DNA of 41,078 bases, taken from positions 1 through 41,078 of IMG/VR virus record IMGVR_UViG_2660238683_000009. One strand, 5' to 3'. The notes under the pieces are model-generated. The model searched no databases. It worked only from the letters and a program-made list of their open reading frames with translations, and had not been told where the DNA came from. The stretch's first letter is position 1, and each line of letters opens with the position of its first letter. The translations under genes were made by a program, and so were the position numbers. Shown in pieces: positions 27,704-34,195 of this stretch. The stretch is from a virus. Lineage: Duplodnaviria > Heunggongvirae > Uroviricota > Caudoviricetes.

Positions 27704-28140
27704 GCCGCCCTGTCTCCCCATCTCGCTTTCCACTCCAGAGCCAGTCTCGCTTCGTCTGACCACTTAACGCCACGCTCTGTACCGAATGCCTGTATAAGCT
27801 CTAATAGCTCCGCAAATTCGCTTACACGCATCCTGCTGGTTGACTGGCCTATTACCACAAAGCCATTCCCGGCAAGGTTAGGAACAACATCCTGCTGCTT
27901 TAATGCTGCGGTAAACACACACTTCCAGCTTTCTGCATCCAGCCAGCGACCATGCCATTCAACCTGACGAGAGACGTCACCAAGGCAAGCCCAAAGCTTT
28001 CGATTCTGGTCTAAGCTGCGGTTGCGTTCCTGAATGGTTACTACGATTGGTTTGGTTGGGTCTGGAAGAATTTGCTGTACCGCGTGAATAGCGTTTTGCT
28101 GATGTGCTGGAGATCGAATTTCAAAGGTTAGTTTTTTCAT
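27700..28140 (-). CDS. ninB: NinB (recombination protein)
   Basis: [31 protein letters not shown]... recalled near-identity to lambda NinB; start at internal Met of ORF track. Confidence 0.85.
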
Positions 28141-28213
28141 GACTTCCCTCTCCCCCAAATAAAAAGGCCTGCGATTACCAGCAGGCCTGTTATTAGCTCA
28201 GTGATGTAGATGG

Positions 28214-28483
28214 TCATTGCTTCATCTCCCTTTCCATTTCATCAATGTCAACGTCATCAGGAAGATGGGAGCAATACGCCGATATACCATGATGATTTAT
28301 CTCATACCCTTTGAACGTTACCATCTGGTGCGTAATCTCAACTTCGTTCAGGAATCCGTCATCGCATAACTGCCTGGCTATTTTCGATTTGGTCTGGATT
28401 ATTGGTAGTGCCTGTTCTTTCAAAGCGCATGATATTTGTGCATCCCATGCCTTTTCGAGAATGGCTAATTGTTTTTTATTCAT
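28214..28483 (-). CDS. Hypothetical protein in the ren-equivalent slot
   Basis: 89-aa ORF between helicase and ninB; does not resemble lambda Ren as I recall it. Confidence 0.4.
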   Translation of the reverse strand: MNKKQLAILEKAWDAQISCALKEQALPIIQTKSKIARQLCDDGFLNEVEITHQMVTFKGYEINHHGISAYCSHLPDDVDIDEMEREMKQ

Positions 28484-29919
28484 CAGAATCCTCCTTTCTT
28501 CTTGGACTGCGGTTCCTCGCGTTCACGGCGGCGCATTTCAGCAGACTGTTGGTCTGTGTCATAAATAGCGCCATTTGCCTGAATGCAATACACCGTGCCG
28601 GTATTGCCATGACGATTGAGACGAAGGATTAGTTCGGTTTCACCAGGTGGAACACTGTCATCAAAAGCACCTTCACGATGGATCCCCACCCAATAATCGC
28701 AATCCTGTTCAATCTGCCCTGTATCGCGCGAGTCACTTGGTAATGGGCGTTTATTGGTTCGGCTTTCCAATGCGCGGTTAAGCTGTGTCAGAAGCACAAC
28801 AACGCAATCAAGCTCTTTGGCAAGGTTCTTCAATCCTTTGGTGATCATGCCGTAAGCAAGGTCGTTGCGATCGGCCTTCTCAGCAGTCATTAGTGTCAGG
28901 TAATCGACCAGAATCATGCCAACGCATCCTTTTTCTCGTTTGATTCGACGGCTTTCGCTGACGATTTGAGCCAGAGATAATCCCGGCGTGTCGTCGATGT
29001 AAAGCATGTCGATTTCACTCAAGCGATTGGCTGTTTCGATCGCCCTGTTGAAGTCACCATCGTAATCACCCTGATAGCCGTCATCGGCGTCATTTGTCGC
29101 CGGAAGGTAAAAAATATTCGGGTTAACACCTGACTTCTGTCCTACCAGCTTTTCCAGTATCTGGTCGCCAGGCATTTCAAGACTGAACATCAGAGCGGGC
29201 TTTTTCTCATGCACTGCGCAGTTGATTGCCATCTGGCTGTATAGCGTCGTTTTCCCCATCTTAGGGCGAGCGCCAATGACGAACAGAGAGCCTTTCACCA
29301 GACCTTTCGGTGACAGCATCCTGTCCAGAGATGGGATCCCTGTGCTCATTCCTCGTTGTTCGCCTGACGGGTCAAATCGCTTCTCAAGGTCGCTAACCCA
29401 GTCTTCCATGACCTCACCAAATGAGCGAAGGCCGCGACGCGATCCGGTTTTTGCATGGTCTGTCAGTTGCGTGAAAATCGCCTGAATAGCTTCGTACTTC
29501 TGCGTTGCAGTCATTCCGTTGCGGGAATAGAGCAATTCCGTCGCTTCAGTCATGCGGTTGATGGCGTAGCGTTCCATTGCGGTTTCGCGAACCTGCATTG
29601 CATAGGCAACGATGTTTGCGGCGCTTGGCGTGTTCTTTGCGATCTCAGCGATATAAGCAAAACCGCCAACAGACGCCGTTAACGATTTACGCTCCAGTTC
29701 ATCGAAAAGCGTCAGGCCATCTACTGGCTTTTGCTCCCGGTGCATTCTGGTTATTTCTTCGAAAATGATTTTGTGTGGTCGGCTGTAAAATGAATCAGGC
29801 TTCAGCATCGCCAGAACTTTCTGGACGCGCTCACTGCTGTCATCATCCAGAAGCAATCCACCAATCACCGCCTGCTCTGCCTCGATGCTATGGGGCGGCG
29901 CATAAAAATTATCGGTCAT
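28483..29919 (-). CDS. Replicative DNA helicase (DnaB family)
   Basis: DnaB N-terminal signature (PPHSIEAEQAVIGGLLLD) and Walker A (GARPKMGKTT); occupies the lambda P position. Confidence 0.8.
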   Translation of the reverse strand: MTDNFYAPPHSIEAEQAVIGGLLLDDDSSERVQKVLAMLKPDSFYSRPHKIIFEEITRMHREQKPVDGLTLFDELERKSLTASVGGFAYIAEIAKNTPSAANIVAYAMQVRETAMERYAINRMTEATELLYSRNGMTATQKYEAIQAIFTQLTDHAKTGSRRGLRSFGEVMEDWVSDLEKRFDPSGEQRGMSTGIPSLDRMLSPKGLVKGSLFVIGARPKMGKTTLYSQMAINCAVHEKKPALMFSLEMPGDQILEKLVGQKSGVNPNIFYLPATNDADDGYQGDYDGDFNRAIETANRLSEIDMLYIDDTPGLSLAQIVSESRRIKREKGCVGMILVDYLTLMTAEKADRNDLAYGMITKGLKNLAKELDCVVVLLTQLNRALESRTNKRPLPSDSRDTGQIEQDCDYWVGIHREGAFDDSVPPGETELILRLNRHGNTGTVYCIQANGAIYDTDQQSAEMRRREREEPQSKKKGGF

Positions 29920-30808
29920 CGTGTTCACCCTCACGAACTTTCAGGTAGGTATTATCGTTAAGCAGGAAATCAAATCCCTTTTTGTGCCAGACGGTTCCGC
30001 GCTGATGGTTTTGGCGCTCTTCGAACATCCATCGGCAATTTTCGCCTACGTAGCTCAAATAATTTCTCCAGTCCTGCATCGTGAACCCATGCCCGTCAAG
30101 CTGGCGGGTTATCACTCCGGCTTTGCGCCAGAACGTTCGGATCTGGTTTTTACGCTTGTCATTCAGTGCGCGGATTCTTGGCGCTTCAGGAAGGATTTCG
30201 TGGTAAGCATCGACAACATCCTGACAGCTAACGGAAGGTTTTTTCTTGTCAGACTTTTTGTCTGCTGCGGTACTCTCTAATACGTCAGTATTAGAGATAA
30301 TATTATTATATTCTTTATCTGTGGTAATTTGCTGGTAATCTGCTGGTACAGTATTGCTTGCAGGCATTGGTATTGCTGGCTTTGAGGTGGTAATTTGCTG
30401 GTAATCTGCTGGTACAAAATTTGACTGATAATCGTCATATTTCTCTACCGAGAAAACTGAGAATTTACCGTGTGAAACCCAGTCAATCATGCCGAGTTTT
30501 TTGAACTTTCTAAGCAGGTACTGAACGCGATCTGGTTTGAGTCCTGTTTCAAACGCCAGAGAGTTTCTACCGCCAAGTAGCTTCCCTCTGCCTACCAGAA
30601 TTTCTCCTGCGTCAGTCATTACATACTCAGGCGTATGCTTTGCTTTGAGGATTAAGTGAACCCACAGATGCGCAGCTTCTGCGTCCTTGTAAAACGGCAC
30701 ATCCATAATTTTACGGTGCAGCAAGGCATACCCCTTACCGCTGCTTTGATGCGGTTGTTGTAGCCTTCTGGCCTCTCTGGCTTCGGCTAGATTAGATATG
30801 TTACTCAT
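29909..30808 (-). CDS. Replication initiator, O-like (replisome organiser)
   Basis: 299 aa; contains iteron direct repeats inside the coding sequence (duplicated peptide [10 protein letters not shown]); follows cII as O does in lambda. Confidence 0.6.
30321..30416. repeat. Putative replication origin iterons within O-like gene
   Basis: 30-bp direct repeat GTGGTAATTTGCTGGTAATCTGCTGGTACA at 30321..30350 and 30387..30416, with TGCTGGTA and GTATTGCT sub-repeats. Confidence 0.5.
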
Positions 30809-30979
30809 GACCTCTCTCCTTCTGCATCAGCTTCACTTTTTCCAACTCAGCCCGGAATCGACCAGGCTGCTTGAAGCTGGACAGGAAGCGATCACGTAGT
30901 ATGTGTTTGTGAATTTTGTCCTGGTAAGGACTGAGTGGTTTTGTCATAATGACTCCTGTTGATAGATCCAGTAATGAAC

Positions 30980-31279
30980 TCAGAATTCCATCTGGATTTG
31001 ATCAGAACGCCCGGTCTTGCACACCGGGCGTTTTTTATTGGTGAGTTCATCAAGCGCATACTTAAAAGCCCTGCTAATCGGACTGATGTCTGATGCCATT
31101 CCGAAAGCACACAAGACCGAAGCAATAAATCTCCAGTCCGTTCTGCTTATCTTCGATTCATGACAGCCAATCATCTTTGCCAGACCGCGCTGGGTAAGCG
31201 TTGACAGGTTGATAAGTAAATCTGTTTCTGCGCGATCAACGTCACGCTGTGATAGTTTGCTGTAACTTGTTTGTTCCAT
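30980..31279 (-). CDS. cII: CII-like transcriptional activator
   Basis: 99 aa; C-terminus [20 protein letters not shown] closely matches lambda CII C-terminus as recalled; HTH in middle; position after cro. Confidence 0.75.
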
Positions 31280-31417
31280 TTCTTAAGATTTCCAATAGTG
31301 AATAGTTAGTTGAAAGGTATGCGTGGAAACGCATATGACCTTAGTTGGTCAGATATCTTGGGACTCGCTTTGTCAGCGACGTAGGACGAATGTCCATTGT
31401 GAAAAGAGCGGTGTTAC

Positions 31418-31651
31418 TTATGCTGCTGATGCTCTACGCGATACGAACACCAGGTTTTCCTTTTTCACGGGTTTATAGGCCGTGAAATTACGAGTAGCTT
31501 CTTCGATTGCATTCGCTTTATCAGGGGAAGCTCTTCGAAATCCATATGCAATCTGGTCAAGATAGCCAACTGAAGTTTTCGCTAATGCGGCGAGTCGCTT
31601 CCATTCCTCACTAGAAGCCTCTTTTCGCCAGCGTAGTAGTTCATTACTCAT
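31418..31651 (-). CDS. cro: Cro-like repressor
   Basis: 77-aa ORF divergent from cI across an operator-rich intergenic region; identity by position. Confidence 0.5.
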   Translation of the reverse strand: MSNELLRWRKEASSEEWKRLAALAKTSVGYLDQIAYGFRRASPDKANAIEEATRNFTAYKPVKKENLVFVSRRASAA

Positions 31652-31764
31652 TAGTGCCTCCGTTTATCATACAGAATAACTTTACCATTTTGATAAATCA
31701 ACCGCAATGTAAATTTATCATATTGCGTATTTATCCATTTGCTAAATAGAGGGAGAATTGTGAG
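31652..31764. promoter_or_regulatory. OR/PR/PRM-like divergent promoter-operator region
   Basis: 113-bp AT-rich spacer between divergent cro and cI with repeated TTTATCA half-sites and inverted repeat TTGATAAATCAA (31689..31700). Confidence 0.5.
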
Positions 31765-32469
31765 ATGGAAAACAAAGATATTCGCAAATCGAATCTGGCG
31801 TTTTTGCTAGATGAGCATAAAAAAATCGCGGGTAACACTAATGCAAGCTTTGCCGATAAGCTTGGGGTTAGCCCTTCTCAACTCACGCAAGTCTCCGGTG
31901 AAAAAAGCACTCGAAACATAGGGGATAAACTAGCAAGAAAATTTGAAGCCGCACTTGGGTTACCTAATGGGTGGCTTGATTTGGTACATGATGTAACACC
32001 AATTGCATCATGCTCAGATTCTTTAACTTTTGTCGGTCAGGTAAGAAAAGGGTTAGTGCGCGTGGTTGGTGAGGCAATTCTTGGTGTTGATGGTGCCATC
32101 GAAATGACCGAAGAGCGCGATGGGTGGCTCAAAATTTATAGCGATGATCCAGATGCCTTTGGCCTTCGTGTGAAAGGAGACAGCATGTGGCCTAGAATAA
32201 AATCAGGAGAATATGTACTCATTGAGCCTAACACCAAAGTATTCCCGGGTGATGAGGTGTTTGTCAGAACCGTTGAAGGACACAACATGATTAAGGTTCT
32301 TGGCTATGACAGAGATGGAGAATACCAATTTACAAGCATCAACCAAGACCACAGGCCAATAACGTTGCCTTATCATCAAGTAGCAAAGGTGGAGTATGTG
32401 GCTGGTATTCTGAAGCAATCTCGCCATCTGGATGACATCGAGGCAAGGGAGTGGCTGAAAAGTTCGTGA
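31765..32469 (+). CDS. cI: CI-type repressor (HTH + LexA-like S24 peptidase domain)
   Basis: 234 aa; N-terminal HTH (FADKLGVSPSQLTQV); C-terminal autocleavage domain with GDSM serine motif. Confidence 0.8.
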   Translation: MENKDIRKSNLAFLLDEHKKIAGNTNASFADKLGVSPSQLTQVSGEKSTRNIGDKLARKFEAALGLPNGWLDLVHDVTPIASCSDSLTFVGQVRKGLVRVVGEAILGVDGAIEMTEERDGWLKIYSDDPDAFGLRVKGDSMWPRIKSGEYVLIEPNTKVFPGDEVFVRTVEGHNMIKVLGYDRDGEYQFTSINQDHRPITLPYHQVAKVEYVAGILKQSRHLDDIEAREWLKSS

Positions 32470-32545
32470 CTTCATCGTCACATAGCTGATAGCCAGTGGC
32501 CTGAAGAGACGTTTGGGTGATAGGAATGGATGTTAAGGATTAAGA

Positions 32546-33592
32546 ATGTCAGCGATTGATCAACCTGCGCAATATGTTATCAAGTCAGAAGACGACTTTG
32601 TATCTTTTGTAACGGAAATGCTCGGAAGGAAGGATATCGACTCAAGCGACTTCACATTCCCTAACGTAGTTTTCAGTGGATGGCCAAAGATCAATATTAA
32701 TGTAAAAGGCGATCCAAATAGATATAATTCTTCATTGACTGCGTCAATGCTTTTTGGTATGGCAGAGCTTACGCATGAAATACAAAAAGCATTTACGGTA
32801 GTCAGTCACAGCACTCATAATCGGCAGAAGCTAAAAGATGCAGAGAAAGGTTTGCTGGATATTGTCTACCGAATAAGCGAAGGCTCAAGCCAAGCGGATG
32901 GTGACTCAGATCCGATTGTAAACGGAGTGGTGACAGTGTTTACTCAAGCGATAGGCAAAATGACAGGAAGGCAAGCACTATGCGCCGTCGCCGCTATCGT
33001 CTTAGCTGCCAGCACGGTAGGCTATAAGTGGATCAGTGAGTACTACGAAACACAGCGACATGACCAAGATTCTCAGGTGCAATTGGTGGAAAAAAGCACC
33101 AAAGCGGTAAACGAAGCACAAGACAATGTGCTCAAGTTGTTGATTAGCGGTCAAACAAACATTAGCAGAGAGGTTCTGGCTCACGGCGAGGATGGTAAAA
33201 GCAAGTTGCTTAAAAAGCTTGCTCAAGACTCGTCAGTTGAGAGGGTAACAATTGGTCAGAGAGTGGTAAATAGAGAACAGTTGAATACCTTAAACCAAAG
33301 ACAATCAATTGATCGAAAAAAGGAAACTAGAAGAGATAACTTTTATGTCACGGGCGTTCGTCGCTCGGGAGAAACAAATCAGGACATAAATATTGACGTC
33401 ATAAGGGTTTCAAATGGTGAATCTTTCACCATAAAAACCTCAGCCGACATAACATCTACTGATGAGCTTCTTGAGTTTTTGAATGCTGTAGCCAAAGAAT
33501 CAACTGTTGAAATTTCATACCTAGAGGTTGTAGAAAATGGGCACATTTCAACAGGGCAATTGATAAATATATTCCCCAGCGAACCAGAGTGA
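32546..33592 (+). CDS. Hypothetical protein with one predicted TM helix, immediately downstream of cI (rexAB-equivalent slot)
   Basis: 348-aa ORF with AAGGA RBS; single central hydrophobic helix (ALCAVAAIVLAASTVGY); AT-rich; followed by strong terminator. No family recognised. Confidence 0.6.
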   Translation: MSAIDQPAQYVIKSEDDFVSFVTEMLGRKDIDSSDFTFPNVVFSGWPKININVKGDPNRYNSSLTASMLFGMAELTHEIQKAFTVVSHSTHNRQKLKDAEKGLLDIVYRISEGSSQADGDSDPIVNGVVTVFTQAIGKMTGRQALCAVAAIVLAASTVGYKWISEYYETQRHDQDSQVQLVEKSTKAVNEAQDNVLKLLISGQTNISREVLAHGEDGKSKLLKKLAQDSSVERVTIGQRVVNREQLNTLNQRQSIDRKKETRRDNFYVTGVRRSGETNQDINIDVIRVSNGESFTIKTSADITSTDELLEFLNAVAKESTVEISYLEVVENGHISTGQLINIFPSEPE

Positions 33593-33603
33593 TGCACTCC
33601 AAA

Positions 33604-33629
33604 CCCGGCCACCGAGCCGGGTTTTTTTT
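33604..33629 (+). terminator. Intrinsic terminator ending the cI operon
   Basis: CCCGGC-CACCGA-GCCGGG hairpin followed by TTTTTTTT, 12 nt after the stop of the 348-aa gene. Confidence 0.65.
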
Positions 33630-33791
33630 GCCTCTCGATCCCCCACCTAAAAAACATAACTCATTGTATTTATTGAAAAACTGATTGATACAACTTGCTA
33701 AACCACGCAATCCAGATCTCCCTCAAATCTCTTTATTTATCCTGTCGAATTCCTACAACAAAATAAAACACCATAAGAATCAATACGATAT

Positions 33792-33848
33792 TTGAAAATC
33801 AAAAGAATTTATCATTTTGCTATTGCCATTAATTTATCATTCCGATAA
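33792..33848. promoter_or_regulatory. OL/PL-like operator region upstream of N
   Basis: Same motifs as the cro-cI region: TTGAAAATCAA (33792..33802), AATTTATCATT (33806..33816) and TTATC-N5-GATAA (33834..33848). Confidence 0.4.
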
Positions 33849-34195
33849 AGTTTTCCCATCAGCAGGACGCACTACTCACCAGGGCGGTGAATATACAACG
33901 ATTCGAATATGAATCTACGGCGCTGACAAAGCGCAATAACCAAAGTGAACTTTGGGGTGTGGTGAAGCCAGCTAGTCACTGGCAAGTGCTTACCTACTGT
34001 TGAGCGGTGAAGCGCTCCCAACGCTAGCAATAGCGTGGACGAGATGGGGAGCCGCGGGCGATAAGGCCGCCATAACGCGCACGTTGTCGCATGGAAAAAT
34101 CACTGGGGTGCCGGTTATACCCCTCCGAATGAGACTCAACAAGCTGGAGCTAGACTACCAGCCACCACACCACCAAAGTTCATCAGGAGGTCTAT

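Follow-up and report, generated by a model that had tools for sequence, protein, structure and literature searches.

A DUF2740 gene between cII and an O-like initiator gene in a lambdoid phage: selection on the protein and predicted coupling to the replication initiator

A small gene of 48 codons, orf48, lies on the minus strand between a cII-like gene and an O-like replication initiator gene in the window analyzed here, that is, the whole stretch of 41,078 nucleotides of the virus record IMGVR_UViG_2660238683_000009. Taken as a whole, the data are best explained by a coding gene of the DUF2740 family that is the first cistron of a module composed of an O-like initiator and the phage's own hexameric helicase, that is coupled to the initiator, and whose protein acts in this module; we assign this reading a probability of roughly 0.6. 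The existence of the ORF changes nothing by itself, as it is already part of the P22, HK022 and HK620 annotations and of a Pfam family, and the NCBI pipeline gives it a name in hundreds of E. coli genomes. The comparative results provide testable handles on it: selection at the protein level, a probable gating of initiator translation, and an occurrence only in modules that bring a helicase. The regional pattern of selection, the conserved predicted occlusion of the initiator AUG and the exclusive pairing with helicase-encoding modules each appear to exceed what a literature search turned up, and they are presented as modest, testable additions.

The ORF is located at 30801..30947 (minus strand); it begins with the ATG at 30947..30945, continues for 48 codons, ends with the TAA at 30803..30801 and is preceded by the Shine-Dalgarno sequence AGGAG (30953..30957, minus strand), 5 nt 5' of the ATG. 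A preliminary description had reported a 48-aa minus-strand ORF with an AGGAG ribosome-binding site in this place, and its coordinates, start codon and translation agree exactly with the ORF list. That description had also placed the stop codon over the start of O, and the TAA and the ATG of the O-like gene (30808..30806) do lie within an 8-nt overlap, ATGAGTAA, at 30801..30808 on the minus strand. Its statement that lambda has no gene here is in agreement with the literature, where orf48, situated between oop and gene 18 in P22, is explicitly said to be missing from lambda (Hayes 2012, PMC3349717).

By sequence comparison, the ORF is the long-annotated gene known as orf48 in P22, as hkaW in HK620 and as DUF2740 in Pfam; the observation is thus not novel, because the ORF belongs to a known and annotated family. 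It matches Pfam DUF2740 (PF10872) with 97.5 bits (cut-off 27) over model positions 1-43 of 43, and PHROG 1913 with E = 2.4e-27. In tblastn searches it shares 81% of its residues with P22 ORF48 (AAF75027) and 96% with HK620 hkaW and the ORFs of HK022, mEp043 and VT2-Sakai (H0097), and a DUF2740 gene is present in 127 phage records; it is also found in 400 of the 5,426 complete E. coli genomes, under the label 'DUF2740 family protein'. In the annotation of the P22 record ORF48 stands between c1 and gene 18 and likewise overlaps the initiator by 8 nt. P22 ORF48, HK620 hkaW and the genes of HK022 and VT2-Sakai (H0097) all occupy the slot between a cII/c1-like gene and the initiator and share this overlap, and the window copy shows no material difference from them; compared with the commonest E. 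coli allele, it carries two residue changes, Q4P and K45R. The window gene has the features of the family, namely a length within 46-48 aa, a position directly upstream of and overlapping an O-like initiator gene, and a location in a lambdoid early-right operon. The family is narrow, with 52 clusters in 5.8 billion proteins and 17 representatives in 1.84 billion, virtually all of which come from Enterobacteriaceae or from phages of these bacteria; the sources are E. coli, Salmonella, Citrobacter, Klebsiella, Pluralibacter, Atlantibacter and one Erwinia phage.

In the literature searched no function, phenotype or detected translation product was found for orf48 or DUF2740: 'DUF2740' and 'PF10872' are not mentioned there, and 'hkaW' gave only unrelated word-start matches. 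The gene rides along as a passenger in P22 replicon constructs. PHROG 1913 bears the label 'tail protein', which has spread to GenBank records such as NC_008464, NC_019706 and NC_070949; we found no support for this label, and the location of the gene in an early replication operon argues against it. An unusual copy is present in the record of Salmonella phage PSP2-22 (L093), where the orf48 frame, having lost the GHE-stop end, continues into a DUF4752 protein (135 aa), with no initiator or helicase downstream; this record is marked UNVERIFIED_ORG and looks chimeric, having T7-like ligase and RNA polymerase genes close by.

The length of orf48 is by itself no more than chance would give, given that 51 ORFs with 30 aa or more overlap the 5 kb around it. 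It is conservation that lifts the ORF above chance, because it matches a Pfam family, keeps its frame and length in all the related loci and shows an excess of synonymous changes specific to its own frame. Conservation of the frame in relatives had been proposed as a check in the preliminary description, and the frame is in fact kept at 47-48 codons in 99/99 related loci, including the Erwinia phage copy (58% aa and 67% nt identity). Among 25 unique DNA sequences dN/dS (NG86) is 0.27 in the orf48 frame, whereas the remaining sense frames give 1.23 and 1.17; the antisense frame also has a low value (0.36), which we attribute to the usual mirror effect of coinciding third positions. Selection is not uniform along the gene. 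Codons 2-11 (pS 0.07, dN/dS about 1.5) are constrained as DNA and not as protein, whereas in the core, composed of codons 12-15, 21-26 and 35-43, which hold no overlapping signals, pS is 0.57 and dN/dS 0.17, and selection on amino acids is clear. Two distant members of the family (about 45% identity) retain the motifs HKNILRD and ELEKVK and differ in their C-termini. Judged from these codon-level patterns, orf48 is a genuine small protein-coding gene whose core is under purifying amino-acid selection; the earlier suggestion that the ORF may be non-coding is rejected by the same patterns (dN/dS 0.27, frame-specific, and 0.17 in the core).

The start of orf48 has a counterpart in lambda. In the alignment of the window with lambda, near-identity extends from the 3' end of cII through AGGAGTCATTATGACAAA, a segment that includes ATGACAAA, and the two sequences diverge afterwards; the AGGAG and ATGACAAA of orf48 are therefore the positional homologue of the lambda O translation start, and orf48 uses the start site that in lambda serves O, a point also made in the legend of Fig. 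S1 of Hayes 2012 (PMC3349717). The Shine-Dalgarno sequence, the ATG, the first three codons, the oop RNA with its terminator and the -10 of pO are nearly the same in the two phages, but in lambda this site opens O itself, whereas in the window it opens the 48-codon ORF and the initiator follows 140 nt further on. The -35 region of pO also differs between the two, a difference noted for a lambda/P22 hybrid (Hayes 2012, PMC3349717).

The same site carries signals of the opposite strand. A pO-like promoter is located at 30922..30950 on the plus strand, within codons 1-9 of orf48. Its -10, CATAAT (30945..30950), is the reverse complement of ATTATG, which contains the orf48 start codon; it is extended by a TG at 30942-30943, and its -35 is weak (TGGTAA, 30922..30927). 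These hexamers were assigned by homology to lambda pO (Hayes 2012, PMC3349717), as the consensus scan did not call the site; the scan's own sigma-70 proposal for pO, TTGATA-16-CAGAAT at 30959..30986, was rejected, since the homology with lambda places it within the oop transcript. The presence of pO in the 5' end of orf48 explains the DNA-level constraint indicated by the low synonymous divergence of codons 2-11. In the 47-codon variants (L006, L096-L103) ATTATG is changed to ATTATACATG, by which the -10 becomes the consensus TATAAT and the start moves 4 nt downstream; the -10 is thus maintained separately from the start codon, because these variants keep it while the start shifts.

From this promoter an OOP-like antisense RNA would extend over 30958..31037 (approximate limits, plus strand), a region nearly identical to lambda oop that overlaps the last 58 nt or so of the cII-like gene. 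It contains two hairpins, the second of which was found by the terminator scan as an intrinsic terminator (a stem at 31004..31034 with a T run after it), and its predicted fold has -30.8 kcal/mol and z = -5.2. Homology, double hairpin, terminator within the 3' end of cII and upstream -10 are all found as in lambda oop. An Rfam scan of 28000-34000 (E <= 1) gave only two sub-threshold chance matches, and Rfam has no family for oop. For prophage BTP1, which by tblastn bears orf48, detection of an OOP transcript is reported (PMC7067206). The preliminary description of the cII-O gap had mentioned neither the pO promoter nor the 5' end of the OOP-like RNA, which are located in the same 170 bp.

At the other end of the gene, the last six codons of orf48 hold both the Shine-Dalgarno sequence of the initiator gene, AAGGAG (30816..30821, minus strand; orf48 codons 43-44, 7 nt before the O-like ATG), and its ATG. 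The initiator ATG is located at the end of orf48 minus 8 in 99/99 related loci, and the overlap octamer is ATGAGTAA in 98 of them (all but one of the unique sequences) and ATGGATAA in the remaining one; a distant locus (L224) has instead a 4-nt overlap between orf48 and the initiator.

In the predicted fold of the mRNA the initiator AUG is paired with the interior of orf48. The long-range helix, H1, is formed by UACUaCGUGAUC (30890..30901, minus strand; orf48 codons 16-20) as 5' arm and by GGUCAUGAGUA (30802..30812, minus strand), which contains the O-like AUG, as 3' arm; both arms come from the MFE fold and from RNAalifold, which recovers the helix; among 24 sequences 98% of cells are paired, with no covariation. 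The topology of H1 also appears when the Erwinia, Pluralibacter and two distant (L224 and L226) sequences are folded one by one, and in these four lineages the adjoining helix differs each time (CUUCCUG/CAGAAGG, UCUCAGU/ACUGAGA, GUUUCUC/GGGAAAC, ACCGCC/GGCGGU). In each of the 8 lineages modelled, the O-like AUG has a probability of 0.92-1.00 of pairing with the interior of orf48; with a shuffled interior the value is 0.18-0.39, and from 0 to 5 of 80 shuffles reach the observed one. In the predicted fold orf48's own start region is more open. The Arg codon that pairs in H1 is CGT in 25/25 unique sequences and is CGU in two distant homologues as well, and the only freely varying synonymous site of the 5' arm is the one at the predicted bulge. 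Third positions that are paired show less synonymous variation than those that are not (one-sided p = 0.02, in a post hoc comparison). The fold of the region as a whole has modest z values, of -2.2 in the window and of -1.2 and -1.35 in two distant homologues. H1 shows no compensatory changes, since both of its arms are constrained by coding as well, and the pairing could thus be incidental; moreover, the structure was derived from the same sequences. A covariation test on the full MFE structure was no better than shuffles, with only the percentage of paired positions standing out.

Two further helices belong to the same predicted fold. H2, the middle helix, keeps its register poorly. The central hairpin, CAGCCUGG-UCGAUU-CCGGGCUG (30848..30869, minus strand; orf48 codons 27-34), has an 8-bp stem rich in G+C and, according to the codon table, is almost invariant across genera even at four-fold sites, with a regional pS of 0.19 and 96% of positions paired. 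Its one common polymorphism, TTC/TTT, changes a G-C pair to G-U, and neither strand has a T run after the stem.

The suggestion, made in the preliminary description, that the ORF might be a translational coupler for O is therefore supported in silico, by the conserved stop/start overlap and by the conserved predicted helix that buries the O-like AUG. Translation of the initiator is likely to be coupled to that of orf48, according to the predicted folds. On the pR transcript the initiator AUG would be locked in the long-range helix with codons 16-20 of orf48; ribosomes translating orf48 would open this helix and then terminate 5 nt past the AUG, and as a consequence synthesis of the initiator would be coupled to translation of orf48. 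In a further and weaker step, the 48-aa basic helical hairpin may act together with the initiator/helicase module in the initiation of replication. Translational coupling through an occluded downstream start is classically represented by the coat-replicase and lysis genes of the RNA phage MS2. As in that type of coupling, the downstream start is predicted to pair with the upstream coding sequence and the upstream stop adjoins the downstream AUG. If coupling holds, the level of the initiator in P22-like modules and in many Stx-phage modules would be set through a small upstream cistron; as the 5' end of this cistron is also the promoter of an antisense RNA, several layers of control would be packed into 170 bp.

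The genes around orf48 form a replication module. Upstream is the gene for a cII-like transcriptional activator (30980..31279, minus strand; Pfam Phage_CII, 114 bits; PHROG 191). Downstream are the gene for the O-like initiator of 299 aa (29909..30808, minus strand; PHROG 345, 'replication initiation O-like') and that for a phage-encoded replicative helicase of the DnaB family (28483..29934, minus strand; Pfam DnaB and DnaB_C), which matches NCBIfam TIGR03600 phage_DnaB with 585 bits against a cut-off of 499. The O-like gene contains iteron-like direct repeats at 30321..30421, two 35-nt copies with GCTGGTAATYT units 11 nt apart, which encode a repeated 10-residue peptide and are presumably the origin of replication.

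In every orf48 locus that we examined, the next gene encodes an O-like initiator, of which there are at least three types, and after it comes a helicase gene of the phage, either DnaB-like or a primase-helicase fusion. A conserved 19-mer at the junction is shared by 120 viral contigs. With contigs that are too short left out, a lambda-type O directly after the junction (31 intact, 3 truncated) is accompanied by lambda P in 34 cases and never by a helicase of either type; orf48 is accompanied by a DnaB-like helicase in 13 cases, by a primase-helicase in 8 and by lambda P in none; and an unrelated 53-codon ORF (PHROG 1331) by a DnaB-like helicase in 32 (one truncated ORF), by a primase-helicase in 3 and by lambda P in none, all these counts overstating independence because the modules are few linked haplotypes and not independent events. 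One distant locus (L226) has a 249-aa gene between cII and DUF2740, and there DUF2740 is still joined to a pair of O-like and DnaB-like genes. The inserted segment of L226 (1927..3141) consists of a 30-aa ORF and of the 249-aa gene, which has no Pfam match; the DUF2740 gene shares 4 nt with the latter and 8 nt with the initiator gene. The pattern of partners is clean all the same and points to the replication module as the functional home of orf48.

The 53-codon ORF (MTKRRKKYQEKEEIRHPDSPEG..., without a Pfam family) occupies the slot of orf48 in other lambdoid modules of the HK97 type, for example in L104, L133 and L163. It uses the same start site and has codons 1-3 and 8-11 in common with orf48; its stop also overlaps the initiator ATG, although by 14 nt, and it is always followed, as is orf48, by an initiator and a phage helicase. 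No homology between DUF2740 and this 53-aa family was detected by hhalign beyond residue 11 (probability 0.6%), and in the PHROG 1331 modules the initiator AUG is not significantly buried in the predicted folds.

The Orf48 protein is modelled by AlphaFold2 as a basic two-helix hairpin, with helices at 7-23 and 28-44 and a mean pLDDT of 78.7. Against the PDB, a Foldseek search with this model matched no solved fold (its single match, with E = 5.6, is meaningless) and a sequence profile search gave nothing below E = 0.86; PADLOC and NCBIfam had no match either, and no functional hint came from any of the profile libraries searched. Known helicase loaders show no similarity to Orf48 in sequence or fold in Pfam, NCBIfam, PDB sequence and Foldseek/PDB comparisons. 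The likeness to the loaders lambda P and DnaC is thus one of genomic logic only, a small protein in an initiator/helicase operon, and orf48 sits precisely where lambda P is absent. A more speculative reading, which we consider quite unlikely, is that DUF2740 might be a minimal adaptor or loader that lets the O-like initiator recruit the phage DnaB-like or gp4-like helicase, with its synthesis stoichiometrically tied to the initiator by translational coupling; by analogy, it might extend to the unrelated 53-aa PHROG 1331 protein of the same slot. If this were true, Orf48 would fill the role that lambda P has for the host DnaB.

Three other explanations must be weighed against a coding gene coupled to the initiator and acting in its module. 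That orf48 is a chance open frame, in a non-coding spacer holding pO and the ribosome-binding site of the initiator, is extremely improbable: frames of this size are common here, with 51 of at least 30 aa per 5 kb, and both ends of orf48 are constrained by other signals, yet 99/99 loci preserve the frame, even where aa identity falls to 58%, its synonymous excess is specific to it, and it matches a Pfam family. A closer competitor grants that the frame is translated and holds that only the act of translating the 48 codons matters, so that orf48 would be a pure leader ORF which sets the level of the initiator and makes an inert peptide. The conserved stop/start overlap and the predicted burial of the O-like AUG fit this explanation, as does the presence in the same slot of the unrelated 53-codon PHROG 1331 ORF, with the same start site and a 14-nt overlap with the initiator, which suggests that geometry matters more than sequence. 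An inert peptide is nevertheless hard to reconcile with a dN/dS of 0.17 at a pS of 0.57 in the signal-free codons, with a length fixed at 47-48 codons, with motifs that persist in homologues of about 45% identity despite a different nucleotide context and C-terminus, and with a confident two-helix model; we therefore consider it quite unlikely that orf48 is a leader alone.

The third explanation accepts a real small protein, merely linked to the module, and places its job outside replication, in the tuning of lysis versus lysogeny, in host takeover or in counter-defence. Host factors are frequent targets of the small basic proteins that lambdoid phages make early, and orf48 lies directly after cII and over pO/oop, at the heart of the decision circuit. 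Where a gene has been inserted, however, it parts cII from DUF2740, and DUF2740 stays with the initiator and the helicase; moreover, orf48 is found with several immunity and cII types, but its replication modules are only those that encode a helicase, and PADLOC had no match for it. A job outside replication is for these reasons unlikely.

Two minor features of the window lie outside this region. Just downstream of the helicase gene, a sub-threshold Rfam match to Trp_leader (28159..28265, minus strand; 21.5 bits versus 41) owes its score to a G+C-rich hairpin with a T run after it, which is probably no more than an intrinsic terminator. An ORF of 348 aa (32546..33592, plus strand), which has no Pfam or PADLOC match and matches only PHROG 6191, a family annotated as of unknown function, is located just beyond the cI-like repressor gene and on the same strand, at the site where lambdoid prophages often carry exclusion genes.
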